Positions 34,004 to 50,126 of a stretch of 64,000 bases of DNA are shown in pieces. Below the pieces are notes generated by a model that saw only the letters and a list, made by a program, of their open reading frames with translations, was not told where the DNA came from and ran no database searches. Location: contig CAVXJS010000005.1 of assembly GCA_963762145.1 (NCBI GenBank), forward strand, positions 24,133 to 88,132, given 5' to 3'. This DNA is from an uncultured Candidatus Rokubacteria bacterium (GTDB taxonomy: Bacteria; Methylomirabilota; Methylomirabilia; Rokubacteriales; CSP1-6). The first letter of the stretch is position 1, and every line of letters starts with the position of its first letter. Made by a program: the position numbers and the translations under genes.

Positions 34004-34080
<77 letters not shown>

Positions 34081-34092
34081 ATTTCAATCGAC

Positions 34093-34866
34093 ATGGCGCC
34101 CGTGATTCTTGTCACCAACGATGACGGGATTCACGCGCGCGGGCTCCAGGTTCTCGCAGAGGCGCTGGCCGCGCTCGGCGAGGTGTACGTCGTCGCGCCG
34201 GATCGCGAGCAGAGCGCGGTGGGTCACGCCCTCACGCTGCACCGGCCGCTCCGGGTAGACCGGGTCGCGGAGCGGAAGTACGCGGTGAATGGCACGCCGT
34301 CGGACTGCGTGAACCTGGCCGTCCTCGGGCTCTTGCCGGAGCCGCCGGTGCTGGTGGTGTCCGGCGTGAATCACGGGACGAACCTGGGCGACGACGTGAC
34401 GTACTCGGGGACGGTGTCGGCCGCGATGGAGGGCACGCTGCTGGGGGTGCCGTCCGTGGCGGTCTCGCAGGCGGAGCCAGACGCGGAGGGCTTCGACGGG
34501 GCGGGGCCGGTGGCCCTCGCGGTGGCCACGCGCCTCCTGGTCGAGGGGCTGCCCGCGAAGACGCTGCTGAACGTGAACGTACCGCGAGGCGCGGTGAAGG
34601 GGATCCGGCTCACGCGGCTCGGCCATCGGGTCTACCGCGAGAAGGTGGTCCAGGAGATGGATCCGCGCGGGCGCCCGTACTACTGGATCGGGGCGGGCCC
34701 GCCGGAGTGGGCGGAGGATGCGGCCTCGGACATCGCGGCGGTGCACGCGGGGTTCGCGTCGGTGACGCCGCTGCATCTGGACCTGACGCACCACGGCGCG
34801 CTCGGCCGCATGAGCGAGTGGGAAGGCGCCTTGAACGCCGTGCTGAAGAAGAAGCGCAAGCGGTGA
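34093..34866 (+). CDS. surE: 5'/3'-nucleotidase SurE
   Basis: ILVTNDDG, GTPSDCV, SGVNHGTNLG..V.YSGTVSAA.EG. Confidence 0.96.
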   Translation: MAPVILVTNDDGIHARGLQVLAEALAALGEVYVVAPDREQSAVGHALTLHRPLRVDRVAERKYAVNGTPSDCVNLAVLGLLPEPPVLVVSGVNHGTNLGDDVTYSGTVSAAMEGTLLGVPSVAVSQAEPDAEGFDGAGPVALAVATRLLVEGLPAKTLLNVNVPRGAVKGIRLTRLGHRVYREKVVQEMDPRGRPYYWIGAGPPEWAEDAASDIAAVHAGFASVTPLHLDLTHHGALGRMSEWEGALNAVLKKKRKR

Positions 34867-35513
34867 GCACGCAGCGCTTCGCGCGCGAGCGCGAGCGCAT
34901 GGTGGACGAGCAGGTGGCCGGGCGCGGGGTCGCCGACGCGCGGGTGCTCGAGGCGATGCGGCGGGTGCCGCGGCATCTGTTCGTGGACGAGGCGCTGCGC
35001 GATCGAGCCTACGGGGATCACCCGCTGCCGATCGGGGAAGGGCAGACGATCTCACAGCCCTTCATCGTGGGCCGCATGACCGAGCTGCTGCGGCTGGGTG
35101 GGCGGGAGAAGGTGCTGGAGGTGGGAACGGGCTGCGGCTTCCAGGCCGCGGTCCTCGCGGAGCTGGCGGCGCGCGTGTGCACGATCGAGCGCCTGCCACG
35201 GCTGGCCGCGCGGGCGCGCGAGACGCTGGAAGGGCTCGGGTATCGCAACGTGTGGGTGCGGGCCGGCAACGGCACGCTGGGGTGGCCGGACGAGGCGCCG
35301 TTCGATCGGATCCTCGTCGCGGCGGGCGGGCCGTCGGTGCCGCCGCCCCTGTTCGAGCAGCTGGCGGAGGGCGGGCGGATGGTGATGCCGGTCGGCGACG
35401 CCGCCAACCAGACGCTCGAGGTGATCGACAAGGTGCAGGGGGTGATGAAGGTCACCCGGGACTCCGGGTGCGTGTTCGTGAAGCTCGTGGGCAAATATGC
35501 CTGGGAGTCGTGA
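34863..35513 (+). CDS. pcm: Protein-L-isoaspartate O-methyltransferase
   Basis: VPRHLFV, GQTISQP, VLEVGTGCG, APFDRI. Confidence 0.95.
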   Translation: MSTQRFARERERMVDEQVAGRGVADARVLEAMRRVPRHLFVDEALRDRAYGDHPLPIGEGQTISQPFIVGRMTELLRLGGREKVLEVGTGCGFQAAVLAELAARVCTIERLPRLAARARETLEGLGYRNVWVRAGNGTLGWPDEAPFDRILVAAGGPSVPPPLFEQLAEGGRMVMPVGDAANQTLEVIDKVQGVMKVTRDSGCVFVKLVGKYAWES

Positions 35514-35535
35514 GACTCTGGGATGAGGATTCGGA

Positions 35536-35612
35536 CGGGGCGTAGCGCAGCTTGGTAGCGCGCCTGCTTCGGGAGCAGGAGGTCGCTGGTTCAAATCCAG
35601 TCGCCCCGACCA
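35536..35612 (+). tRNA. tRNA-Pro(CGG)
   Basis: 77-nt cloverleaf, anticodon arm CCTGC-TTCGGGA-GCAGG, CCA end. Confidence 0.95.
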
Positions 35613-38052: not shown

Positions 38053-38060
38053 CCGCCGCG

Positions 38061-38438
38061 GTGGACGCGCTCGGGAAGGCTCAGACGGAAGGGCGCCGCC
38101 TGCAGGGCGCCATCGACGTCGAGTACCACGGAGCGCGGCGCGACAACACGTGGGGCCGCACCCAGCCCCATGTCGTCGAGCGGTGGCGCCTCGCATTGCG
38201 GGCCTGGCTCACCGCCACCGAGGCCGCGCTCGCCGCGAATCCGGCCGCGCTGAGCCGCTTCCGTGCGGCGCCCGCGGCCGCGAGTCCCGCGCCCGGCGAG
38301 AGCGCCGACTGGGTCGAGATTCGCAATGCCCTCGCGGGCAAGCTGACGGTCCTGGCCGCGCTGACCGACGAAGCCCGACGCGCCGGGGGAGGCGCCACGC
38401 CGACTCCGCCGCCCCGCAGCGTGTGGCGCAAGCCCTGA
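38061..38438 (+). CDS. Hypothetical protein
   Basis: ORF filling gap, host-like codon usage. Confidence 0.5.
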   Translation: MDALGKAQTEGRRLQGAIDVEYHGARRDNTWGRTQPHVVERWRLALRAWLTATEAALAANPAALSRFRAAPAAASPAPGESADWVEIRNALAGKLTVLAALTDEARRAGGGATPTPPPRSVWRKP

Positions 38439-38442
38439 GACG

Positions 38443-39271
38443 TCAGGCGGGCCGGCGGGCCGAGAACACCGTGATCGGGTAGAGGCAGTAGTAGTCCGGG
38501 GCGCGCAGCACGTTGGCGGACGAGCCCTCGTCGCAGAGCCGGGTGCGCTCCCGCCAGTCCTCCGGGGCCAGCAGCTCCCGCAGCCGATCTCCCCAGTTGC
38601 GCGAGAAGACGGTGTGCTGGATGTAGTCGTGATCGGTCGGAGCCAGCGGCGCGTGGCGCTCCAGCGTGTAGGTGCGCATCGCGACGCTCGCGAGTCCGGC
38701 CGCGCGGAGGGAGGCGGGCGTGGTCTGGCGCCGCTCCTGGAACGAATGCCCCGCGCCCTCGTCGAGCGTGCGGCGAATCTCGGCGAGCTGGATGCGCCGC
38801 TCGAGCTCCGGGTGCCCCGGCAGGAACATCGCCGAGAAGACCTGAGACTCCTTGACGATGACGCGCCCGCCCGGCCGGACCACGCGGGCGAACTCGCGCA
38901 AGGCCTTCTCGGTGTCCACGATGTGGTGCAGCACGTCTCCGCACCACACCCAGTCCAGGCTCCCATCCGGCATCGGAATGGCGGTGCCGTCCCCACGCCG
39001 GAACTCGAGCCGGTCCCCGGCGGTCTCTCCGCCCACGAGGCGCGCGCGCCGCGTCCACCTTGTCCGCCTCGGGCTCGATGGCCACGACCCGGCCGCCCTG
39101 ACCCACCGCCTCGGCGAGCCAGAGCGCGTAGAGGCCGACGCCGCAGCCCACGTCGAGCCCGCGCGAGCCGGCGGGCAACCCCAGCTCGCCGATGATCCGC
39201 CGCGCTTCGGGCTCCTGGAAGCGGTTCATGCGCTCGAGCGAGACGTGGGGGCCGGACTCGGCGGGGCTCAT
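38443..39271 (-). CDS. Class I SAM-dependent methyltransferase (frameshift ~39040)
   Basis: LDVGCGVG motif I; GD...IPMPDGSLDWV, LREFARVVRPGG in second frame. Confidence 0.8.
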
Positions 39272-39367
39272 CGCGGGCCATGCTACCAGAGGGCTGCTCC
39301 GGCCGGGGTGCTAGAATCGGGACGCTGGCGGCCGACACCTCGAGGCGGCGGCAAGGGACGGGCGGTC

Positions 39368-40168
39368 GTGAACATCGCGCCACGCGCAGGGTGCACCGGA
39401 CTCATCCTCCTCGGTCTGCTCAGCGGTTGCTCGAGCACCCCGCCCCCCGCGCCCGCTCCGACGTCAGACCAGGACCCGCGCCGGCTGGCGCTCTGGGCGG
39501 CGGCGACGGAGTGCGCGGAGGGGAAGCAGGCGTCGCTGCGGGTCGACCGCGTCGACGACAGCGGCCAGGTCCAGGTCACGATCCTTCCGGGCGGGCAGCC
39601 CGCGGTGCCCGCGTTCACCGCGTGCTTCAAGCAGACGGCTCCCGCCAAGCTGGCCGCGGCCGGGCGGGCGACCAGCCCGGCCCAGATTCTCGAGCCCCGG
39701 GTGGCTCCCGAGCCGACCGGCGGCCGACCGGCCCCGCGAGCCACCTCGGTCGCGATCCAGACGATACAGAACCGGTTCCTGGTGCCGGTCATGCTCAACG
39801 GAACCCACGCGGCCACGCTTCTGCTCGACACGGGCGCCAACATCACCGTGCTCACCCCGCAGGTCGCGCGGCGCGTGGGAATCGACCTGCCGACCGGACC
39901 CGGCGCTTCGAAGGCGAAGGCCAGGATGGCGAGCGGACAGGAGGTCGACGTGTCGCTGGTCCGCGTGAGGTCGATGACGGTCGGCGCGGCCCGGATCGAC
40001 AACCTCCAGGTCGCGGTGTACGAGATCGGCGTGCTGGACACCAGCGAGACGGGGCCTCTGACCGTGGACGGATTCCTGGGCGCCGATTTCCTCAGCCGAT
40101 TCACCATGACCATCGATCCGCGGGCCGGGAAGCTGACCCTGCAGCTCGCGGATGGGCCGGTGAAGTAA
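39368..40168 (+). CDS. Lipoprotein with retropepsin-like aspartic protease domain
   Basis: LSGC lipobox; LLDTGA; DGFLGADFL. Confidence 0.85.
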   Translation: MNIAPRAGCTGLILLGLLSGCSSTPPPAPAPTSDQDPRRLALWAAATECAEGKQASLRVDRVDDSGQVQVTILPGGQPAVPAFTACFKQTAPAKLAAAGRATSPAQILEPRVAPEPTGGRPAPRATSVAIQTIQNRFLVPVMLNGTHAATLLLDTGANITVLTPQVARRVGIDLPTGPGASKAKARMASGQEVDVSLVRVRSMTVGAARIDNLQVAVYEIGVLDTSETGPLTVDGFLGADFLSRFTMTIDPRAGKLTLQLADGPVK

Positions 40169-40181
40169 CGCGACAGCTCAG

Positions 40182-41042
40182 TCAGAGGCGGGCCGTATGG
40201 CGGCGACGCCTCCGCGCGAGGTAGCCGAGCCCAGCTGCACTCGTGCCCCAGAGCAATAGGGTGGCGGGTTCCGGCGTGTGCAGCCCCGCGGCGCCCCCAA
40301 CCCAGAACTCGAGCTCGTTGCCGACGAAGGGATTATTCGGGTTGGCGATCTGTCCTCCCACGAGGCCGAGGACGACATCCTCATGCGGCCCGAGATCATG
40401 AACTGCGCCGCGGGCGTCGAATCCGAAACGGCCGCCGGCAGGGAGATTGGCATCCCGAATTGCTTTCCGGAGCGCCTCGGCGGGCACCCCGAAGTCGGCA
40501 GGCAACGTGATGACGCTCCCCGCATTGAGCACGACGTTGAACGGAACGGCGGGCCCCGGCGCGACCTCCCCCGAATGGGGAGCAATGCGGTGCACGGCAC
40601 TTCCCGTCAGGGTGACCACGTCACTCGGGGAGAAGATGGACGTTGCGGGCTGGTAGGTGACCTGGGTCTGAACCGACCAGAAGTCGCCGATGACGAAGAA
40701 TTGAAAGGTCTGCGCCACAACGAGAGGGTCGACCCGCCCGTCGCGTCCGAATCCGGCCAGGAAAACCAGATTGAAGTGCAGGGGGTTCTCGGCAAAGAGC
40801 ACAGCCGGCAGCGGATTCGGTGTGGCCGGCAACGGAGGAATGAACTGACTGAGCATGAAGGGATACAGATTGAAGCCCGGGAGATTCGGGTCAGGCGGCC
40901 CTTGCGGAACGCCGAATGTCGGTGGTACCGGAGCGGTCCCCGGGAAGCCAATGGTCATCGCCGATGCCGGAGCGGCAGCCCCCGATAACAGCACGAGGCC
41001 CACCAGGATGGTCGACGCCAACAGATTGGGGATGCGCTTCAT
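40182..41042 (-). CDS. PEP-CTERM surface protein, paralog 1
   Basis: Signal peptide; TPEPATLLLWGTSAAGLGYLARRRRR C-terminus. Confidence 0.88.
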   Translation of the reverse strand: MKRIPNLLASTILVGLVLLSGAAAPASAMTIGFPGTAPVPPTFGVPQGPPDPNLPGFNLYPFMLSQFIPPLPATPNPLPAVLFAENPLHFNLVFLAGFGRDGRVDPLVVAQTFQFFVIGDFWSVQTQVTYQPATSIFSPSDVVTLTGSAVHRIAPHSGEVAPGPAVPFNVVLNAGSVITLPADFGVPAEALRKAIRDANLPAGGRFGFDARGAVHDLGPHEDVVLGLVGGQIANPNNPFVGNELEFWVGGAAGLHTPEPATLLLWGTSAAGLGYLARRRRRHTARL

Positions 41043-41098
41043 ACCCTGCTCCTCTTGGATCGTTGGATCAGGCCAGGGAGCGACGAACAGGTGGCGCG

Positions 41099-41128
41099 AT
41101 GCTAGGGCGGGCAGCGCACGCTTGTCAA
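41099..41128 (-). promoter_or_regulatory. sigma70 promoter of PEP-CTERM gene 1
   Basis: TTGACA-N18-TAGCAT on minus strand; same boxes upstream of paralog 2. Confidence 0.6.
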
Positions 41129-41247
41129 CGCGTGGCCAGCCGGGTTCGGGAGTGCGGCTGAATGGTCGTCCCCGGCGGAGTGTTTGAAGTGGTCCATCAG
41201 GCAGTGCCGTGGTAGGGTGGCTGCCCCCATAGACGAAGGAGGACCCT

Positions 41248-41499
41248 ATGACTCAGTCGGGCGTGTCAGTATCCGAACCGAGCATCGTGGGCGTCACCGC
41301 CGTCACGGTGATCGAAACCGCCTCCAGAGACCTCGAGGACCTTGAGGAGATCATGACGGTAGGACACTCGCCTTCGTGGAGCCTCCCAGCGCTCCCGGAC
41401 GGCCTGGCTCTCTGCGTCAGCTGCTGGCGGCTGATCACGGCGCCACAGCTTGGCGTGGATCGATGCCTAGCCGCCAGGCAATGGGCAGTCTTCCGATGA
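41248..41499 (+). CDS. Small hypothetical protein (cassette-like)
   Basis: AAGGAGG SD; stop coincides with junction motif ATGATCGCC. Confidence 0.5.
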   Translation: MTQSGVSVSEPSIVGVTAVTVIETASRDLEDLEEIMTVGHSPSWSLPALPDGLALCVSCWRLITAPQLGVDRCLAARQWAVFR

Positions 41500-41792
41500 T
41501 CGCCTCGATCTATGCTCGCGTCGTTGTCGTCCTCGTCTGCCTCCTTGCCCCCGCCACATCGGCCTGGGCGGAATGCGCCTGGGTCTTGTGGCTCGGAACA
41601 GGCAGCGGCTATGCAGCCTTTGGAGCCTACGGGGGGAACACGGGGGAGAAGGATTGCAAGGAGGCGGCCACCCAGTTGATGACCAACATGGGCAAGGATG
41701 CCAAGCAGCTATCGGACTTTCTCAAATCGAGCAGTCGGTATCTGTGTCTCCCGGACACCGTGGATCCGCGCGGGCCGAAGGGGACGAAATGA
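41496..41792 (+). CDS. Small secreted protein, AECAWVLW...CLPDTVDPRGPK type
   Basis: Signal peptide, conserved-looking Cys pattern; starts at one junction motif and ends at the next. Confidence 0.7.
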   Translation: MIASIYARVVVVLVCLLAPATSAWAECAWVLWLGTGSGYAAFGAYGGNTGEKDCKEAATQLMTNMGKDAKQLSDFLKSSSRYLCLPDTVDPRGPKGTK

Positions 41793-41878
41793 TCACGCTC
41801 AAGGCGGTGCAGGAGATCCTCGGACACCGGAAGTCCACGATGACCCTCCGGTATGCCCGCCTCAGCACAAGGTGCTAA
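41789..41878 (+). pseudogene. Tyrosine integrase C-terminal remnant
   Basis: LKAVQEILGHRKSTMTLRYARLS (LGH...Y catalytic box). Confidence 0.75.
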
Positions 41879-41909
41879 AATCGAGCTCGCACGTCGCGTA
41901 AACCCTGAT

Positions 41910-41949
41910 GCCCCCGTAGCTCAGGGGAATAGAGCAGCAGTTTCCTAAA
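41910..41949 (+). pseudogene. tRNA-Arg(CCT) 5' half (att-like duplicate)
   Basis: GCCCCCGTAGCTCAGGGGAATAGAGCAGCAGTTTCCTAAA nearly identical to 48591-48630, ends at anticodon loop. Confidence 0.85.
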
Positions 41950-42531
41950 TCCAGACCGTCCTCATGGCCGAGCAGCCCACGCGCCAGGACGGCCTCCTCA
42001 CATACGCGCGCCGGATCGTCAAGGATCTCGAGCTCGCGGTCGCCGCCAAGGCCACGTGAGGATGCCGTGGCGCAGCTCGCGCCGGCAGACCAACTTTCGC
42101 CCGCCCTCAGGCGCCGCTGGACGCCCACCGAGGCGGAGCGCGGGTTGCTGGCGCGGTGACAGCAGCGCCTCGGCGAGGCGGCCGCGACCATGCTCCGATC
42201 GCCCCGCCCGCGCCACGCCGCGAGATCACGGGCGCCCGGCTGGAGGAGGCGAGTACGGTAGGCGCCACCAGGCCGTCCCGCCCACTGATCGAAAACTTGG
42301 AGGACCTCTAATGCAACCCGATCTGTACCTGTCTGCCGACGAGTTCCATCGCCGAGTCGCAACGAGTCTGAAGGAGATGTAGAAGGTGAACCCTGGTAGC
42401 CCGAGGATGGCGGAACTGCAAGCGCAGCAAGAGACGCTCTACAAGCGGAAGTACGGCGACCGGTAGTCAGCGAGAACTAGGCTATGACCACAGCCCCCGC
42501 CGCCCACGCGCTGGTCAAGGCCCGCTGGACC

Positions 42532-43371
42532 CTAAGGGGCCGCCTTATGGTTCCGGCGTCGCCGCGCGAGATATCCGAGCCCAGCCGCGGTGCCCCAGAG
42601 GAGGAGGGTCGCGGGTTCGGGGGTATGCAGCCCAGCGACACCGCCAAGCCAGAATTCGAACTCGTTGCCGACGAAGGGATTGTTGGGGTTGGCGATCTGC
42701 CCGGCCAGGATGCCGAAGACGACATCTTCATCCGTCCCCAGCGTATGCGTAGCTGCGCGGACATCGAATCCGAATCGGGCGCCGGCCGGAAGGTTAGCGT
42801 CGTGAACCGCCCGTCGGAGTACATCGCCGCGCACGTCGAAGTCGGGCGGAAGGGTGATGGCGCTCCCGGCATTGAGCACGACGTTGGAGGGAACAGGCGG
42901 CCCCGGCGCGAACTCGCCCGGGTGCGGGCCGATGCGGTGCACCGAATCCGCCGTCATGGTCACGATGTCGCTCGGGGCGAAGATGGACGTCGCGGGTTTG
43001 TACTCGATCTGCGCCTGCACGGACCAGAAGTCCCCGATGATGAAGAAGTTGAAACTCTGGGCGGCCACAATCGGGTCCGTCTTGCCGTTCGGCCCTCCGA
43101 GCCCTGCCTGCATGACCAGGTTGAATTGCAATGGGCTCTCGGCAAACATCCCGCTCGGCAACGGATTCGGGGAGGGCGGCAGGAAACCATTCAGCATGAA
43201 GGGGTAGAGGTTGTAGCCAGGGAGATTGGGATTGGGAGGCCCAGCCGGGAGATTGGTCGGTGGGTTGCCTGGGATACCAATGACGGTGGCCGATGCCGGG
43301 CTGCCGGGACCAGCGAGCAATGCGAGCCCAAGGAGGAAAACCCACGCGGTGAGTCGTGTGGCCCGGGTCAT
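42532..43371 (-). CDS. PEP-CTERM surface protein, paralog 2
   Basis: Homologous along its length to 40182-41042; TPEPATLLLWG..AGLGYLARRRR. Confidence 0.88.
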   Translation of the reverse strand: MTRATRLTAWVFLLGLALLAGPGSPASATVIGIPGNPPTNLPAGPPNPNLPGYNLYPFMLNGFLPPSPNPLPSGMFAESPLQFNLVMQAGLGGPNGKTDPIVAAQSFNFFIIGDFWSVQAQIEYKPATSIFAPSDIVTMTADSVHRIGPHPGEFAPGPPVPSNVVLNAGSAITLPPDFDVRGDVLRRAVHDANLPAGARFGFDVRAATHTLGTDEDVVFGILAGQIANPNNPFVGNEFEFWLGGVAGLHTPEPATLLLWGTAAGLGYLARRRRNHKAAP

Positions 43372-43431
43372 CGCCTGTTCCTCCTCGTTCGTAGGATCAG
43401 GTCAGCAGGCGGTCGGATTGAAGTGGGCGCC

Positions 43432-43460
43432 ATGCTAGGTGAGCCCCACAGCCTTGTCAA
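43432..43460 (-). promoter_or_regulatory. sigma70 promoter of PEP-CTERM gene 2
   Basis: TTGACA-N17-TAGCAT on minus strand. Confidence 0.62.
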
Positions 43461-43732
43461 TGTCAGGTTGCCCCGTGAGTGATCGGCCTGCCGGCCTCGC
43501 CCGCCCCACGGACTTGTCGCCTCGCGTGAGCCCGGAGGATCTCCAGGACGCAGCATTGGTATTCGCTCGGGCCCTGCTCGAGCATCTGGCTGATGGCCTT
43601 GCTACCGGCCAGCTCGAGACGGTGCTCTCCGGCGCGCGGTGCCTGGAGCACCTCGCCAGGCTGGCCGGCCCGGCCGTCGCCGCGCAGGCCTTCGCCGCGG
43701 CCTGTCGAGCCCAATAAGGACCAATCTAGCCC

Positions 43733-43977
43733 GTGCCCACCCCCTCTTCGCGCCCAGACGCCCCTGGCCCCGAACGTTCGGCTCCTGTACGCTCCCCGCA
43801 GCCGATCTGCGTGGTCTGTGGAGGGCCGAGGGACTACCGGAAGCGGGAAGCCTGCTCCGATCGGTGCCCGGCGGCTCAAAGTAGACGGCGACGGCAGGAT
43901 GCCCAATTGACCCGAGATAGGAGATTCGGGCCCTTTTGGAAACGGCGCTGAAGAAACTGGAGGGCGAACGCCTATGA
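43733..43977 (+). CDS. Small CxxC...CxxxC zinc-binding protein (frameshift ~43920)
   Basis: CVVCGG..KREACSDRC; corrected C-terminus EIRALLETALKKLEGERL overlaps next ATG. Confidence 0.5.
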
Positions 43978-44960
43978 ATCGTCGAGCGTTCCTGAGCGCC
44001 CTGAGCGGCAGCCTCCTCGCCGCGCCGCTCGCCGCCGAGGCGCAGCCGACACCGAAGCCCGCGCGGGTCGCGCTTCTGTGCGGGGTGCGCTGCGAAGGCG
44101 GAGGCTACGATGCGTTTCGCCACGGGCTGCGCGACCTGGGGTGGGTCGAGGGCCGCAACCTCGTTGTCGACGTCCGAGGTGCCGAGGGGCAACCTGATCG
44201 CCTGCCTGCCCTCGTGGCCGAACTGGTCGCCGGCAGGCCCGACATCATCGTCGCCGTCGCGCCGCAGCCGGCTCGCGCCGCCAAGGACGCGGCGGGGGCT
44301 ATTCCCCTCGTATTCGTGGCAGTGGCCGATCCGATCGCAGCTGGGATCGTCCCGAGCCTCGCCCGGCCCGGCGGGAATGTGACGGGCCTGAGCACGTTAG
44401 TGCCGGGCGGTTTCATGGGCAAGATTCTCCAGTTCCTCAAAGAAGCGGTGCCGACGGCCTCCCGGGTCGCGGTTCTCTGGAGCTCGAAGAACCCTCTACA
44501 TGTCACCTTGATCCCGAAGGAGCTGACACCGTCTGCTCCACCACTCGGCGTCGAGCTTCAGATGCTGGATGTCACTGACCCCGCGGCCATCGCGCCCGCA
44601 GTCGAGGCAGCCGTTCACGGCCGCGCGCAAGCGCTCCTCGTCGTGGGCGATCCCATGTTCCACCGGCCCTTCGCACGGGTGCCCGACCTGGCTTTGCGCG
44701 CACGGCTGCCCTCGATGTATCTCGACCGCGACGTGGTGACGGTCGGAGGCGGGCTGCTGTCTTATGGCCCCGACTGGGGTGCGATGTTCCGTCGGGCCGC
44801 TGCCTATGTGGACAAGATCCTAAAGGGCACCAAACCCGGCGACATGCCCGTCGAGCAGCCGTCGAAGTTTGAGCTGGTCATCAACCTCAAGACCGCGAAG
44901 GCCCTCGGCCTGACGATCCCGCCGTCGCTCCTGCAGCGGGCGGATCAGGTGATCGAGTAG
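43974..44960 (+). CDS. ABC transporter substrate-binding protein (ABC_sub_bind type), orphan
   Basis: RR-type leader NRRAFL, SLARPGGNVTG, PVEQP.KFELVINLKTAKALGLTIP. Confidence 0.92.
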   Translation: MNRRAFLSALSGSLLAAPLAAEAQPTPKPARVALLCGVRCEGGGYDAFRHGLRDLGWVEGRNLVVDVRGAEGQPDRLPALVAELVAGRPDIIVAVAPQPARAAKDAAGAIPLVFVAVADPIAAGIVPSLARPGGNVTGLSTLVPGGFMGKILQFLKEAVPTASRVAVLWSSKNPLHVTLIPKELTPSAPPLGVELQMLDVTDPAAIAPAVEAAVHGRAQALLVVGDPMFHRPFARVPDLALRARLPSMYLDRDVVTVGGGLLSYGPDWGAMFRRAAAYVDKILKGTKPGDMPVEQPSKFELVINLKTAKALGLTIPPSLLQRADQVIE

Positions 44961-45934
44961 TGGACCGGCGCAGCTTCCTTAGCACCTTGACTGGTGGCCT
45001 CCTCGCCGCGCCGCTCGCCGCCGAGGCGCAACCGGCTGGGAAGGTGTGGCAGATCGGATATCTCCACTTGTTTCCCAGACCTTCGCCGTTCTTCCAAATG
45101 CTCGGCCAGGGGTTGCGTGATCTCGGATACGTCGAGGATCAGAACGTCGCCTTCGCGTACCGGAGCGCCGAGGGCAAGGCCGAGCGGCTTCCGACCCTCG
45201 CGGCTGATCTGGTCCACCTCAACGTCGACCTCATCGTTACCTCCACCGCTCCGGCGGCCCGTGCCGCGAAGGAAGCGACCACCACGATCCCCATCGTCAT
45301 GGTGGGCGTCAACTACGACCCGCTGGCGCTCGGCTACGTCGCCAGCCTCGCTCGGCCGGGGGGCAACGTCACGGGGCTATTCTTCCTTCACCTCGACTTG
45401 CTGGCCAAACGGCTCGGGGTCTTCAAGGACATGTTGCCTAGCGTCGGTCGCGTCGCTGTCCTTTCCGATCCCCTCTCGGTCGATCAACTCAAACAGGTGG
45501 AAGTGGTCAATCGCTCGCTGGGTTTCAAGCTCCACCCGCTGGAACTTCGAGAACCGCAGCTCGATGTGGAGAGCGCGTTTCGCGCCGCAGTGCGGTCTCG
45601 GGCCGAAGGGCTCTTCGTGTTGGAGACTGTGAACATCTTTCAAAAGCGATCACAGATCGCCCAGCTCGCCCTGAAGCACCGGCTCCCGACGAGCTTTGCG
45701 TTCCGAGAATACGTCGACGCTGGGGGCCTCGCCTCCTACGGTGTGAACTTCCCGGACATGGGCAGGCGCGCGGCCATCTACGTGGACAGGATCCTCAAGG
45801 GCGCCAAACCCGCAGACCTGCCGGTTGAGCAGGCGACCACGTTCGAGCTGGTTGTCAACCTCAAGACCGCCAAGGCTCTCGGGCTGACGATCCCGCCGTC
45901 ACTCTTGCAGCGGGCAGATCAGGTGATCGAGTGA
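44960..45934 (+). CDS. ABC transporter substrate-binding protein (ABC_sub_bind type), orphan
   Basis: Same family motifs as upstream paralog. Confidence 0.92.
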   Translation: MDRRSFLSTLTGGLLAAPLAAEAQPAGKVWQIGYLHLFPRPSPFFQMLGQGLRDLGYVEDQNVAFAYRSAEGKAERLPTLAADLVHLNVDLIVTSTAPAARAAKEATTTIPIVMVGVNYDPLALGYVASLARPGGNVTGLFFLHLDLLAKRLGVFKDMLPSVGRVAVLSDPLSVDQLKQVEVVNRSLGFKLHPLELREPQLDVESAFRAAVRSRAEGLFVLETVNIFQKRSQIAQLALKHRLPTSFAFREYVDAGGLASYGVNFPDMGRRAAIYVDRILKGAKPADLPVEQATTFELVVNLKTAKALGLTIPPSLLQRADQVIE

Positions 45935-45947
45935 GCCGTCCGCCACG

Positions 45948-46187
45948 ATGAGTACGCCTGTCGATCGCGAGCAGCTGCGGCGCGACTGCTCCGACGCCCT
46001 CGAGGCACTGATCCAAGCTCAACGATTGGACGGGATCACCCGGCTGGCCGACTCACTCCGAGCCCTCGGGCCGCCCTATCGCTTCCACGGGGAGCAGATC
46101 GATGCCGCGGCGTGGGCTCGCGAAGACAATACGGTCACCTGGCATCTGATCCACGCGCTCGAGAACCTCGAGCGCGGCGTGCAGTAG
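45948..46187 (+). CDS. Small hypothetical protein
   Basis: Co-oriented ORF with plausible composition. Confidence 0.5.
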   Translation: MSTPVDREQLRRDCSDALEALIQAQRLDGITRLADSLRALGPPYRFHGEQIDAAAWAREDNTVTWHLIHALENLERGVQ

Positions 46188-46208
46188 ATCGGACAAGCGG
46201 AGGCCACG

Positions 46209-46631
46209 ATGGCCCGGAAGCGAGCATCACGGCGGCCAGGGAAGAAGACCACGAAGCCCAGTGGCCAGCGGAAGACCGTGGCCAAGAGGAGGCCAGCCAA
46301 GAGGAACCCAGCCAAGAGGAGGCCAGCCAGGAAGAAGCCTGCCAATAGGAGAAAACTCGCCCAAAGGGAGCCCGGGTTAACAAGAGCGCCCGGAGGTGAG
46401 CCGGCGATGCCTCGTAAGCTCGCGGACACAGACCAGCAGATCGAGACGTTCCGGCATCATGTGTCTGAGGAGTGTGTCTCGATCGCGTCCAGCATCGACA
46501 CCATCCCGCCCGGCACGATCCCGGCCGAGATGCGCGATCGGTGGCTTCGGGGATTGCGCCATGCCGCAGTCGCCTTGGTCCCAGTGATTGAGCGGCTCGC
46601 CGGTGGGCCGACGACCAAGGCCGAGCCATGA
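46209..46631 (+). CDS. Hypothetical protein with K/R-rich pentapeptide-repeat N-terminus
   Basis: GGAGG SD; AKRRP/AKRNP/ARKKP repeats; stop on junction motif. Confidence 0.6.
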   Translation: MARKRASRRPGKKTTKPSGQRKTVAKRRPAKRNPAKRRPARKKPANRRKLAQREPGLTRAPGGEPAMPRKLADTDQQIETFRHHVSEECVSIASSIDTIPPGTIPAEMRDRWLRGLRHAAVALVPVIERLAGGPTTKAEP

Positions 46632-46731
46632 TCGCCGCCGGTTGCGGTCGAATCGTAGGTACCGCCGACCGTGAGCACTCTCGCTTCGCTCGCGCCGCCG
46701 GCGGGAGAAGCTGGCGGAGTACCTGAAGTGA
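46628..46731 (+). repeat. Cassette junction element 1 (ATGATCGCCGCC...GGGAGAAGCTGGCGGAGTACCTGAAGTGA)
   Basis: 46690-46729 matches 47355-47394 at 39/40. Confidence 0.8.
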
Positions 46732-46988
46732 GCCGCTACGCTCGTGAACGAGGCAGCTGGCGGAGCCGCGCCACCCGCCGACGGAGCCGCCGCGCCGCTA
46801 GCTTCGCCACCGCCCGCCGGGTCGCCCAGATCATTCGATCAATCATGGCCGGGCGTACCGCACACACCGTGCCAGCGACTCATTCCGTGCTTTTTCTGGA
46901 ACTTGGCGGTCCGCACCATCTTCGCGCAGAGCACGGACTTTCCCATCATGGGCTGCGCGATGACATTTCTCGACAGGGGGACCCATGA
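46728..46988 (+). CDS. Possible hypothetical cassette ORF (frame uncertain)
   Basis: GTG overlaps junction stop; TGA lies in next junction motif ATGATCACCGCCATCTACG. Confidence 0.3.
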   Translation: MSRYARERGSWRSRATRRRSRRAASFATARRVAQIIRSIMAGRTAHTVPATHSVLFLELGGPHHLRAEHGLSHHGLRDDISRQGDP

Positions 46989-47067
46989 TCACCGCCATCT
47001 ACGTCCGCACGCGCGGCCTGCGCTATCTCGACCCGGACGGCTGATGCTGCCGCGAGTACGAGAGCCG

Positions 47068-47331
47068 ATGGCCGCCACGCAGCCTGCGACGCAAAGCACT
47101 AGGGCGCCCGTTGTGATCGCGACGCTCGTGCTGGCCGGATGTGCCATCGCCCAGAACACGCCCGCGCAGGAGCGGACATGGCAGGCCATCGCGAAGTGTA
47201 GGGAACTCCAACCGAGCGGGTATCAAGTGACCCACGTAGAGCCTGATGGTCGGTACTTCTACAGGTCTGGTGACTTCGCCGGTGGTGTCCGCCCATGGCA
47301 AGACTGTATCCGCGCCGGCGGCCCCCGATGA
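47068..47331 (+). CDS. Small lipoprotein
   Basis: LAGC lipobox, two further Cys; stop on junction motif. Confidence 0.65.
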   Translation: MAATQPATQSTRAPVVIATLVLAGCAIAQNTPAQERTWQAIAKCRELQPSGYQVTHVEPDGRYFYRSGDFAGGVRPWQDCIRAGGPR

Positions 47332-47396
47332 TCGCCGCCTATCCCCCAATATCTTCGCGCCGCCAGCGGGAGAAGCTGGCGGAGTACCTGAAGTAG
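47328..47396 (+). repeat. Cassette junction element 2 / 22-aa mini-ORF MIAAYPPISSRRQREKLAEYLK
   Basis: 69 bp in frame; hairpin CCGCCAGC-N7-GCTGGCGG. Confidence 0.8.
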
Positions 47397-47403
47397 AGGG
47401 CAG

Positions 47404-47787
47404 ATGGACGGCGCCGGAGTGGTGGTGGTTCTGGGCGTCTTTATCCTCATCATCGTGGCGGTCATTGCCTACCGAGTGGGATACCTGCGGGCACAGGACG
47501 TGAGCCACAGGCTAGAAGCCGAGTGGCGCAGGCTGCCCATGGAGGCCCCCTTGCCGCGTTGGCGCCGCGCGGCGGGTTGGGCGGCCTATGTGTCCTCCGC
47601 GCTCTCGCTCTGTCTGTTCCTGGTCGTCGCGTATGTGTACGCATACCGCTGGGGGTGGACCTATCTGACGGCCGCATGGATTCTGTGGTTCGGCATCTTC
47701 CTGGGAGTGCTCTGGCTCGCCGAGTGGTGTTGGAAGCCCAGCCGAGAGGCCCAGGGCGGTGCGAGTGACGAGAAGGATCCGGAATGA
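47404..47787 (+). CDS. Small membrane protein (3 predicted TM segments)
   Basis: Hydrophobic stretches; begins 7 nt after junction 2, stop on next junction motif. Confidence 0.65.
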   Translation: MDGAGVVVVLGVFILIIVAVIAYRVGYLRAQDVSHRLEAEWRRLPMEAPLPRWRRAAGWAAYVSSALSLCLFLVVAYVYAYRWGWTYLTAAWILWFGIFLGVLWLAEWCWKPSREAQGGASDEKDPE

Positions 47788-47853
47788 TCGCCGCCATCCA
47801 CCCACGTCAGGCCGCCGGAAGAACGGGAGCGGCTGGAGGAAGACCTGAAGTGA
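47784..47853 (+). repeat. Cassette junction element 3 (diverged)
   Basis: ATGATCGCCGCCATC...CGGGAGCGGCTGGAGGAAGACCTGAAGTGA; last 30 bp match copy 1 at 25/30. Confidence 0.7.
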
Positions 47854-48112
47854 TGTCATCCGCGCTGGCGCAGCTCTGGCTGTCGTGAGGGGCAGGAGGA
47901 ACCTCTAATGCTACAGCTCTTCGACCTTTCGAGACAGAACGCCGCCCTAAAGCGTGCGCTACTCCAATGCCGTGAAGACGACGAGGCCCGCCGCCGCCTG
48001 CTTGCTTCCATCTATGAGACTTGGACTGGGCGCAGCTGAATGTCTGGCGAATCATGCGGAGCCGCGGCGCGGCTCGATGCGTTGCTACATGGGGGTGGAA
48101 TAGGGAGGGAGT

Positions 48113-48376
48113 ATGGCCAAAACGCCTAGTGATCTGATTTTCGAAGCACTGTGCCTTCGATATCGTTCGACCACCAACGTCGCCTGGGTGATGACGCGGC
48201 AGGAACTGCAGGAGGCGACCGGTCTGCCAGCGGAAACCCTCGTCGATGCATTGCGCGACCTGGTTAACCCGACGAACGAGGACCTCCCGATCCGCTTCGT
48301 CAACAACGACTCCGACAAGATCACGATCGGCCCGGCATGGGCGAGTCGGTGCGAGGACATGGGGAAGCCCGCGTGA
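48113..48376 (+). CDS. Small hypothetical protein (possible winged helix)
   Basis: GGAGG SD; MTRQELQEATGLPAETLVDALRDL; stop on GTGATCGCCGCC. Confidence 0.6.
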   Translation: MAKTPSDLIFEALCLRYRSTTNVAWVMTRQELQEATGLPAETLVDALRDLVNPTNEDLPIRFVNNDSDKITIGPAWASRCEDMGKPA

Positions 48377-48384
48377 TCGCCGCC

Positions 48385-48505
48385 AGGGGCAGATCTACGA
48401 CCTCAAGGAGATCCTGGGCCACAGCGATATCAAGATGACCGCCCGCTACGCCCACCTCAGCCCGGCGCACCTGCGCGCCGGCGTGGATGCGCTCGACGGG
48501 CTCAC
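48385..48505 (+). pseudogene. Tyrosine integrase C-terminal remnant
   Basis: IYDLKEILGHSDIKMTARYAHLSPAHLR. Confidence 0.8.
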
Positions 48506-48507
48506 CG

Positions 48508-48540
48508 ATGGGCACACGAATGGGCACAAAGTGCTAGAAT
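48508..48540 (+). promoter_or_regulatory. Arm-type direct repeats (ATGGGCACA x2) plus extended -10 TGCTAGAAT upstream of tRNA-Arg
   Basis: Repeats at 48508 and 48520; similar GCACAAGGTGCTAAAAT precedes the 41910 half-tRNA. Confidence 0.5.
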
Positions 48541-48590
48541 CTGAGTCGGCGCAGGACACCGCGCCGCGTAACTCCGCGAGACAACAAGGC

Positions 48591-48667
48591 GCCCCCGTAG
48601 CTCAGGTGGATAGAGCAGCAGTTTCCTAAACTGCGTGCCGGGTGTTCGAGTCACCCCGGGGGCACCA
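48591..48667 (+). tRNA. tRNA-Arg(CCT)
   Basis: 77-nt cloverleaf: GCCCCCG/CGGGGGC acceptor, GCAGT-TTCCTAA-ACTGC, GGGTG-TTCGAGT-CACCC, CCA. Confidence 0.95.
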
Positions 48668-48673
48668 TCCACA

Positions 48674-49889
48674 TCACGCATTTAGCGCGCGATCCTCTCG
48701 TCGGCCGTTCGCCGGGGGCGGAAGCGGTTGCGCCTGGGTCGCGGCGGGACGCGTGTCCGCCGCCTCGATGGCCGCGGCGAGCCCTTCCGCGTGATGCCGG
48801 TCCCCGCCCGGGACGAAGTGGCCGTAGAGGTCCACCGTGACCTGGATCGAGGAGTGGCCGAGCTGGCGGGACTACGTAGGCGATTGGTACGCCCCGCCGG
48901 AGCATCAGGCTCGCGTAGGTGTGCCGAGCGTCATGGATGCGGATGTGCGCGCACCGCCGCCTTGTCGAGCAGCGGGGGCCAGACGTGGCGCCAGACCCAC
49001 GAGGCGTTGAGCGGCCGGGTAGGGTCGATGGCCGCCGGGAAGACCCACGGCGACAGCTCGTGGCCGGCGACGGCCGCCTCGGCCTGGGCGATGGAGTGGC
49101 GCTCGTGGAGCTGGGCCATCAGCGCGGCGGGGCAGTCCACGATGCGGAGCCGGCCCGACTTGGGCGTGTTCACGAGCACCCGGCCGCCGCGCACCGCCAC
49201 GGTCCGCTGCAGGTCGATCAGGTTGCGGCGCCGGGTCGAGGTCCGCCCACTGCAGCCCGAGCGCCTCGCCCTCTCGCATGCCGGTGAGAAACAGCACCGC
49301 ACGAGCAGGGCGTGGTCGGGATACCACTTTTGGGCGGCGGCTAGCACCTGCGCCACCTGCTCGGGCTCGAGCACCATGACGTGCGCGCGAGGATCGTGGC
49401 GCAGGCCGAAGAGCCGCCCCACGCGCGCGGCCGGATTGGACGGGATGATTTCGTCGCCCACGGCCGCGTAGAGGATGCTGCGCAGGGTGGCGGCCATGTT
49501 CTTCACCGTGTTGCGGGCGGCGCCGCTCTGGAGCTTCTTGGCGACAAAGGCCCGCACGTGCGCCGGACGGATCTCGCCGAGGGTCATGGCCCCGAACGTC
49601 GGCTCCAGGTGGGCCGTGATGATCTGCTCGAGTACTGGGCGGTCCGGGCCTTGCGGTGCGGCACGATGGTCTCGGTACGCCACTGCACTGCGTACGCTTT
49701 GAACGTCGGCACGGGCGCACTTTCGATAAAGGCCGGCCCGCCCTCGTGCAGCCGGCGCTCGCTGCCCGCCGCGACATACGTCGCCGCCTTTTCCGACCCG
49801 ATGCGCCGGCTGCGCCGCTGCTTGCCGTGGCGGATGAACACCCAGTAGACGCCGCTCCCGGGAACCTTCTCGCGAACCGTGACACCCAT
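48674..49889 (-). CDS. Tyrosine integrase (multiple frameshifts)
   Basis: TGMREGEALGLQW, TPKSG, IHDARHTYAS, QLGHSSIQVTVDLYGH over several frames. Confidence 0.85.
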
Positions 49890-49893
49890 GGCC

Positions 49894-50126
49894 TTACCTC
49901 CGTCGTCGGGCCCGCGGGGGCGGGCGAATGTCGAGGACAACAGACGCGCCCAGCGCTCGAGCGATGCGGGTCAAGGTGGGGACGGTCGGGACCCGCTCGC
50001 CGAGCTCGACTTTCTGGACATACACGGTCGAGAGCAGGCACCGGTCGGCCAGGTCGGCTTGCGTCCAACCCCGCGCTTCTCGGAGCGCCTTGATCCGGGG
50101 TCCGAGCGGCTTCGCGGGGTACGCAT
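49894..50126 (-). CDS. XRE-family repressor
   Basis: IKALREARGWTQADLADRC..S..Y..KVELGER.P; ATG 50126 needs a 1-nt correction in a C run. Confidence 0.8.

Follow-up and report, generated by a model that had tools for sequence, protein, structure and literature searches.

Repeated junction units made of fused serine and tyrosine recombinase gene ends in a decayed tRNA-Arg island of an uncultured Candidatus Rokubacteria bacterium

The tandem accretion of integrative elements together with their decay is the closest known kind of process to the one considered here, and it is exemplified by ICESt1-type elements, for which a review (PMC5704250) describes tandem accretion and decay into cis-mobilizable elements. 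Comparable arrays, such as the ssrA islands of Dehalococcoides and the SCC-type arrays, are driven by large serine recombinases (LSRs). According to the source that describes them (PMC3146451), the tandem islands of Dehalococcoides are kilobases long, carry a CcrB-like LSR, and have 20-bp repeats that correspond to the 3' end of ssrA. This work concerns a repeated junction unit of approximately 69 nucleotides (nt) in a 64,000-nt stretch of DNA (the window; G000:C5:24133-88132, contig CAVXJS010000005.1 of assembly GCA_963762145.1) from an uncultured Candidatus Rokubacteria bacterium. The window has a G+C content of approximately 70%, and its source assembly (G000) is 88% complete. The units are spacers that separate small genes inside a decayed mobile-DNA island adjoining a tRNA-Arg gene. 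In its typical form, the unit is the start of an LSR gene joined in frame to the end of an Xer-like tyrosine recombinase gene. The preferred reading, held with somewhat more confidence than doubt, takes these units for the scars of small modules that accumulated in tandem and then lost the bodies of their recombinase genes.

Like the ICESt1-type decay, the locus combines a tRNA hot spot, the loss of recombinase genes, the retention of repeated borders, and a content that varies among relatives. Contrary to it, the repeats consist of two fused recombinase-gene ends and not of copies of the target gene's end, the modules are single small open reading frames (ORFs) of 250–750 nt, and the borders are in-frame mini-ORFs. 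With the Dehalococcoides and SCC-type arrays, the locus shares a small-RNA gene as a neighbor, tandem units, short direct repeats, and the lack of integration genes in some units. However, unlike in the ssrA islands, the module includes a second recombinase, which is Xer-like, and the repeat joins the start of an LSR gene to the end of a tyrosine-recombinase gene. No description of hybrid units of this kind was found in the literature, within a search of limited scope, and their peptides match 0 Pfam families.

The junction unit and the origin of its two arms

The preliminary description of this DNA reported a repeated junction unit, and the repetition is well founded. The sequence ATGATCGCCGCC, with at most one mismatch, occurs six times in the window against 1.04 expected, a number reached in 0 of 100 shuffles, and five of these sites fall within 1.8 kb, at positions 46628, 46985, 47328, 47784, and 48373 (junctions 1 to 5). 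Three of these five junctions (46628–48384) continue into a common right arm, and the resulting units, at junctions 1, 3, and 4, are those formerly numbered copies 1, 2, and 3. Between copies 1 and 2, the right arms agree at 39/40 positions, as first reported, whereas the 25/30 given for copy 3 has to be corrected to 24/30 (measured against copy 2). The 25-mer GAGAAGCTGGCGGAGTACCTGAAGT is found exactly at 46705 and 47370, with 0 occurrences expected. Copy 2 (47328–47396) is indeed an in-frame ORF of 22 codons, and copy 3, of 70 nt, exhibits a single frame change between MIAAIHPRQ.. and ..PPEERERLEEDLK, which is followed by the stop codon. The ends of the units (GTGA, TAG-N7-ATG, and TGATG) are likewise as described.

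The proposal that the unit joins a recombinase N-terminus to a fixed right arm also holds, with a serine recombinase on the left: the left arm is the start of an LSR gene (MIAAIYARKST..). An exact search with the 20-mer ATGATCGCCGCCATCTAYGC returned 78 loci in 185,579 species genomes, 40 of which were classed by script as MIAAIYA(R/K)KST.. gene starts (14 intact, 6 frameshifted, and 20 short stubs); the metagenome-assembled genomes (MAGs) with such starts are labeled as Rokubacteria, Nitrospira(ceae), Acidobacteriota/Vicinamibacterales, Gemmatimonadales, and others. Intact relatives hold Resolvase, Recombinase, and Zn_ribbon_recom domains, the Resolvase match beginning at residue 3. In L121 (565 residues) and L117 (555 residues), where L-numbers denote retrieved loci and G-numbers genomes, PF00239 is matched at 1.5e-24 and 2.3e-23, respectively, along with PF07508 and PF13408. 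The LSR family is present in 29 of the 81 family genomes of the window's relatives. A 20-mer search at three mismatches matched 158 of 159 genomes and was discarded as too noisy, and a search for related loci based on one LSR protein brought back nothing beyond the locus of the query itself.

The stubs of the window retain 4–9 LSR codons, a complete LSR gene with the catalytic serine (..YARKS..) is not among them, and PF00239 has 0 matches across the assembly. In G066, an intact LSR gene is directly preceded by two stubs and three ORFs, every ORF ending on ATGA. LSR genes are located at element ends and converge on tRNA genes, with frames that enter the complement of the tRNA, and the attachment site of the LSR is suggested to overlap the 3' end of its gene. 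In L117, L118, and L119 (G073 and G090), intact LSR frames cross a tRNA-Arg or tRNA-Gln gene on its complementary strand; the far end of the LSR element of G073 yielded no direct repeat of the tRNA.

The right arm (..REKLAEYLK and stop) is in turn the last 16–19 codons, including that of the catalytic tyrosine, of Xer-like tyrosine recombinase genes; that it is itself the C-terminus of a common gene is new here. Intact source genes of the arm were located on soil metagenome contigs. Metagenome contigs were scanned once for GGAGMRGCYGGSGGAGTACSTGAA, which yielded 92 stretches, from which 80 loci of at most 4 kb each were fetched, with 81 matches, 67 of them non-duplicate. A script placed 18 of these 67 right arms at the end of long open frames; of the others, 24 have a MIAA stub in front of them and 25 an integrase truncated otherwise at its 5' side. 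These proportions are biased, as is the identity within the pattern, by the selection of the sample through that same pattern. The GH..Y.H motif of tyrosine recombinases is present in 16 of the 18 long frames (L168 and L209 are without it). Complete integrase genes encode 364–382 residues and match Phage_integrase at 1.9e-26 to 8.5e-34; those of L180, L199, and L212 comprise PF00589 and a SAM-like N-terminal domain, of which the window retains the tail alone.

Two C-termini are distinguished among these proteins, type A (..LLGHSSITTT(A/S)IY(A/T)HVTPRKERE(K/R)LAEYLK) and type B (..IQEALGHA.ITTTTMYAH(I/L)(S/T)TRR(R/Q)REKLAEYLK). The genes of L180, L199, and L212 end in ..GHA.ITTTTMYAHIST.. or ..GHSSITTTAIYAHVTP.., then REKLAEYLK and stop. 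In the window, copies 1 and 2 hold type-B tails (YPPISSRRQREKLAEYLK compared to YAHISTRRRREKLAEYLK) and copy 3 a type-A tail. The integrases are XerC/D-like, yet they remain under the NCBIfam equivalog cut-offs (182–200 bits against 335 for XerC, and 165–188 against 330 for XerD). In the type-B integrases of L159, L180, L196, and L199, an insertion of approximately 60–70 residues after the K-beta-hairpin region splits the XerC match. This insertion lies roughly where integron integrases have their extra domain, and its sequence is unrelated.

Among species genomes, the right arm is limited to the window's genus, with six copies in the source genome itself (on C5, C11, and C15) and others in 5 of 20 further genomes; two matches with three mismatches outside the genus fall within unrelated sequence. 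The assembly lacks any close type-A or type-B integrase (best 30%), and no close type-A relatives were found at E <= 1e-40 in 159 family genomes, two matches of 34–38% identity corresponding to other subfamilies. The preliminary description had considered that REKLAEYLK might simply be the C-terminus of a common decayed gene with no positional link to MIAAIY; it is such a C-terminus, but the link exists. The junction recurs in 24 of the 67 non-duplicate right arms from soil metagenomes and in 5 of the 20 genomes of the genus. Two other origins of the right arm were tried and rejected. As the end of a host gene, it has two species-genome matches at the C-terminus of methylthioadenosine phosphorylase in an unrelated MAG, attributable to chance because the orthologue in the source genome ends differently. 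As a part of the LSR gene itself, its best local alignment to 18 LSR 5' regions scored 13, a value reached by 10–25 of 200 shuffles and hence without significance.

Joins, modules, and their interpretation

The LSR gene starts with ATG ATC GCC GCC ATC TAC GCC CGC AAG, and the integrase gene ends with ..ACC ACC GCC ATC TAC GCC CAC GTC... The hybrid is shown to consist of the first 4–7 LSR codons (ATGATCGCCGCC ATC TAC GCC) followed in frame by the last 16–19 integrase codons (..ATC/ATG TAC GCC CAC .. REKLAEYLK and stop), the switch point being inside the A-I-Y-A codons, where both genes have the same bases. Hybrid tails are of three types, namely A, B, and ..LARLLE, with the last of which a related integrase of G142 natively ends. 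However, not all joins are of this form: stubs range from 4 to 35 codons, L171 combines 16 LSR codons with approximately 20 integrase codons outside A-I-Y-A, and other joins outside it connect 14 LSR codons to KRRRE.. forms. The reciprocal integrase–LSR junction (..TTAIYA + RKST..) was found neither in 185,579 species genomes nor in the retrieved loci (0 hits in each), with a degenerate but exact-match pattern that diverged copies would escape.

On the metagenome contigs, an integrase tail, belonging either to an intact gene or to a unit, is followed by one small ORF and, after 250–750 nt, by the next MIAA junction. These junctions are of three kinds: LSR stubs of 12–28 codons, hybrid units, and MIAAI.AR joined in frame to the signal peptide of a secreted protein. 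The existence of a module with the order integrase, small ORF, LSR is derived from L152 (integrase, 86-residue ORF, LSR start), from G146, where an integrase is followed by a stub 1.1 kb downstream, from the stubs upstream of the LSR gene in G066, and from the presence of at least two junction features in 47 of the 67 loci.

In the preferred explanation, which is held to be slightly better than evenly balanced, ancestral mobile modules of this composition would have stacked in tandem in the tRNA-Arg island. Both recombinase bodies would then have been lost through a deletion that began where the LSR gene of one module starts, reached to where the integrase gene of the following module ends, was favored by a repeat of 12–15 nt, and left the order ORF, (ATGA) mini-ORF, ORF. 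Conserved blocks may afterwards have permitted the shuffling and loss of cassettes by recombination, and the array would now be inert in the source genome. The variable length of the stubs, the joins outside A-I-Y-A, and the many other 5' truncations of the integrase argue for such scars, as do the 0 hits of the reciprocal junction and the absence of the recombinases from the assembly. The preliminary description had proposed that the unit is a hybrid att site; it is at most a candidate for one, given the varying breakpoints (4–35 codons), the predicted reciprocal junction with its 0 hits, and the lack of an intact copy of either recombinase in the assembly.

A more specific version of an attachment site, in which a tyrosine-integrase element inserts into the 5' end of the LSR gene, its attP overlaps the 3' end of the integrase gene with the A-I-Y-A codons as core, and the unit is a true attL, is considered very unlikely. 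It would account for the approximately 17/21 nt (by eye) that the LSR start shares with the tyrosine region of the integrase, and for the stubs found directly upstream of unrelated recombinases, either tyrosine integrases (L019, L067, L074, and G073) or a second LSR type (L037, L076, and L094). Nevertheless, the partner junction that is obligatory for this mechanism is the one that returned 0 hits, and the integrases behind the stubs belong to other subfamilies with their own ends kept.

In L037, L076, L094, and L198, on Nitrospira-type contigs, LSR stubs of 21–23 codons (..EKED and stop) stand directly upstream of a different serine recombinase (MTRVALYARYSS..), an arrangement that is conserved across several genomes. 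In L019, L067, L074, L117 (G073), and L140, the LSR stubs span 11–14 codons, have a Shine-Dalgarno-like motif at their end, and either overlap the starts of tyrosine integrase genes from several subfamilies or come very close to them. It looks as though the LSR body has repeatedly been replaced by another recombinase gene.

A different role would correspond to the units if they were the working recombination sites of a cassette platform, with the 3' codons of the integrase gene serving as resident site and each 69-nt unit as the site that a cassette carries, and with the Xer-like integrase and/or the LSR inserting, excising, and reshuffling the single-ORF cassettes, in the manner of an integron whose integrase is co-oriented; this is thought to be rather unlikely. 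The same doubtful standing is given to the wider proposal that the integrase–ORF–LSR modules represent a previously undescribed gene-cassette platform of soil bacteria, in which the cargo slot lies between the integrase end and the LSR start and the 69-nt mini-ORFs act as both sites and couplers. An integrase with its own tail does directly head co-oriented small ORFs (250–750 nt) split by units, and the unit's borders fall on its ATG and its stop. One and the same cassette is found behind tails of either type as well as behind intact integrase genes, its right-hand partners differ, and the DNA at the ends of the type-A and type-B genes is common to both despite a protein identity of 31–33%. 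The arrays of the window, C11, G008, and G009 hold common cassettes that differ in order and number, with units as borders, and a second copy of one cassette is found beside rtcB on C15. The insertion that splits the XerC match in the type-B integrases points in the same direction. On the other hand, the units lack a conserved hairpin or dyad, their stub lengths and joins vary, and many of them are frame-broken or partly deleted. Moreover, neither circular forms nor reciprocal products were seen, neither recombinase family is present in the assembly, and ordinary recombination at blocks of 21–27 identical nt could shuffle the cassettes equally well.

In its layout, the array resembles an integron. 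Its single-ORF cassettes are co-oriented (a minus-strand ORF is present in at least one type of cassette) and for the most part promoter-less, repeats of approximately 70 nt stand between them, a Xer-related tyrosine recombinase heads arrays elsewhere while integrase-less arrays also occur, the short ORFs at the junctions may aid translation, and cassette order and number differ between relatives. Unlike in integrons, a serine-recombinase gene starts at every right-hand border, the units are remnants of coding sequence that lack a conserved hairpin, and the integrase, at 99–107 bits where the cut-off is 265, fails the integron-integrase model TIGR02249. Membership among the integrons therefore fails on the integrase model and on attC structure, and the likeness of layout stays. 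The pdif modules of Acinetobacter plasmids are also small gene modules, bounded by 28-bp non-coding XerC/XerD sites on which host enzymes act. Both systems share discrete small gene modules and a link to Xer-type tyrosine recombinases, the recombinase being element-encoded in the present case, where no 28-bp site of this kind was found, though no search was aimed at one.

Several observations weigh against the deletion scars. No undeleted tandem of an LSR gene followed by a type-A or type-B integrase was seen in the loci, no complete module was found on a single contig, and the four complete type-B genes show no stub or LSR fragment in the 550–930 nt retrieved upstream of them. The hybrid at A-I-Y-A is far commoner than the other joins and arose with at least two tail types. 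Types A and B were both retrieved by a single 24-nt pattern, by which the sample itself had been selected, and one cassette ORF stands behind tails of both types as well as behind intact integrase genes; at 31–33% protein identity, this suggests exchange at the tail and would also fit a real recombination site in the last ~25 nt. It is because of this shared cassette and the lack of an undeleted tandem that an active cassette platform retains the low probability stated above.

Hairpin and translational coupling

The unit had also been described as a hairpin. An 8-bp stem between CCGCCAGC and GCTGGCGG forms in copies 1 and 2, where it corresponds to Arg codons of the type-B tails, and type A is without it. 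The folds do not surpass those of shuffles, the z-scores being −0.83, −0.71, and +1.25 for copies 1, 2, and 3, respectively. In a covariation check across 54 units, 52.8% of the cells of this stem are paired, the same as in shuffles, of which 450 in 500 attain this share, and compensatory pairs number 0. The hairpin is not supported as a conserved feature.

The ribosome relay proposed along the array is compatible with the geometry of the units. At all five junctions of the window, an (A/G)TGA terminates an open frame through its TGA, and in four of the five that frame has the highest G+C content at third codon positions. In the wider set, the upstream coding frame stops on the TGA of ATGA at 46 of the 63 stubs with an open frame, one third being expected. 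Downstream, 48 of the 57 units with enough sequence are followed by an ORF of at least 40 codons starting −4 to +44 nt from the unit stop, and 45 of these 48 ORFs have a Shine-Dalgarno-like motif. At the tails of the LSR stubs, the sequence amounts to a Shine-Dalgarno motif followed by a start codon.

From these data, it could be proposed that the units persist as translational couplers whatever their origin, with ribosomes restarting at ATGA and stopping near the next start, thereby keeping promoter-less ORFs translated; this is deemed distinctly unlikely. The excess of termination at ATGA (46/63 stubs and 4/5 window junctions), the nearby downstream starts with their motifs, and the ends of the LSR stubs all count for it, as does the precedent of short ORFs in integron attI sites, which reportedly aid the translation of cassettes (PMC8876359, PMC11511950). 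However, an ATGA is inherent to any gene that starts with Met-Ile, 23 of the 48 downstream starts are the GTG inside AAGTGA, whose open frames may be spurious in DNA of 70% G+C, the downstream ORFs own Shine-Dalgarno motifs, and the frame of the mini-ORF is broken in copies 1 and 3 of the window and in G009. If the units are deletion scars, the ATGA overlap and the proximity of stop and start would be inherited from an operon-like coupling of ORF and LSR, and they may help to keep the small ORFs translated.

The tRNA-Arg island and related arrays

The tRNA-Arg(cct) gene (48591–48667, plus strand), an integration hot spot, is the sole match of an Rfam scan of 41000–49000. Its first 40 nt are repeated with 95% identity at 41910–41949 (plus strand), which marks the left border of an integrase-type element ending at the full tRNA; a similar pair, spaced by 3.2 kb, is present in G008. 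The gap between a conserved XRE-type regulator gene and tRNA-Arg measures 10.5 kb in the window (38060–48590) and ~160 nt in G094. With the partial duplicate of the tRNA-Arg gene at 41910, five repeated junctions, and at junction 5 an integrase that has been gutted, the locus exhibits the marks of a decayed integrative element, and the 10.5 kb that G094 lacks are a further sign of the island.

The array starts with a cassette ORF of 140 residues with a basic N-terminus (46209–46631, plus strand, as are the features that follow unless stated), whose stop is the TGA of junction 1 and whose tail recurs behind a stub in L030. Neither this ORF nor the other cassette ORFs match a Pfam family above the cut-off. 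Junction 1 (46628–46731) is composed of a 12-nt LSR start, an insert of ~52 nt similar, by eye, to the C11 array, and a type-B integrase tail (..RRRREKLAEYLK and stop, in frame 3). It is followed by cassette X (46732–46984, without assigned strand), an ORF-less remnant and the most widely shared piece, with matches at 69–84% in G009, G005, G013, G014, G020, and C11; the longer copy on C11 carries a 128-residue minus-strand ORF. Junction 2 (46985–47067) is a decayed unit (MITAIYVRT..), LSR-like to about codon 9, with a degraded tail whose likeness was judged by eye.

The next cassette ORF (47068–47331) encodes a lipoprotein-like product of 87 residues, with a signal peptide and LAGC, and stops on the TGA of junction 3. 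This junction (47328–47396) is the 69-nt unit in which MIAA precedes YPPISSRRQREKLAEYLK and stop, that is, an LSR start and a decayed type-B tail (compare ..MYAHISTRRRREKLAEYLK and stop). Behind it, an ORF for a membrane protein of 127 residues (47404–47787) has an 86% copy at G000:C15:230762-231198, preceded by a type-A and not a type-B tail, and relatives behind intact integrase genes and behind other units. Junction 4 (47784–47853) joins, over 70 nt, an LSR start and a type-A tail with one frameshift. Two small ORFs of 43 and 87 residues (47908–48376), the second of which stops on the GTGA of junction 5, have homologues in the arrays of C11, G008, and G009.

Two components had been overlooked in the preliminary description. 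At junction 5 (48373–48629), GTGATCGCCGCC is joined to the last ~82 codons of a tRNA-Arg-linked tyrosine integrase, 72% identical to residues 267–348 of an intact gene of 348 residues in G008, and the frame runs into the tRNA. A sixth, older stub is located at 41466–41792 (plus strand), where a small secreted protein (..ECAWVLW..DPRGPKGTK and stop) has MIASIYAR.. joined in frame to its signal peptide; the same fusion is found in G066, G009, and metagenome loci, and the secreted protein has its native start (MAIRRSR..) in G142.

Besides the junction array, the region 38060–48590 carries two PEP-CTERM-type secreted proteins on the minus strand (40182–41042 and 42532–43371) and two ABC substrate-binding protein genes (43974–45934). 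On the other side of tRNA-Arg, a second tyrosine integrase gene (48931–50068, minus strand), with an apparent frameshift near its 5' end, converges on the tRNA; excisionase- or helix-turn-helix-like small ORFs come after it, forming a separate island 3' of tRNA-Arg. At 34004–35612 and in L122, tRNA-Pro(ggg) and tRNA-Pro(cgg) are followed by pcm, M23-peptidase, and sigma-factor genes, in synteny between the window and G094.

The source genome holds two further sites of this kind. A second array at G000:C11:956600-959200 (L133 and L136) contains three right arms or units, a lipoprotein ORF, and an 86-residue minus-strand ORF (MDTPVLRLMIREKLADGRLPNNHIPRMWGG..) that recurs in metagenome arrays. 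At its end stands an LSR remnant with an internal deletion, behind which 11 nt are identical to the 3' end of tRNA-Arg. At G000:C15:230700-232000 (L013), the 127-residue membrane cassette is flanked on both sides by decayed units beside an rtcB-like gene, and it is preceded by a small basic protein that resembles the N-terminus of the 46209–46631 ORF.

If the units are scars, they show the shedding of recombinase genes by tRNA-linked islands in soil bacteria of the Rokubacteria type, where identical codons in two unrelated recombinase genes would let one deletion remove both while leaving an in-frame linker. This would also account for many of the odd MIAAIY.. mini-ORFs in soil MAGs, which gene callers otherwise misannotate. 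If, on the contrary, the units are active, they would represent a second, independent way to build gene-cassette arrays, integron-like and derived from two recombinase families; the intact genes for the integrase and the LSR, which have been located on metagenome contigs, make this directly testable.

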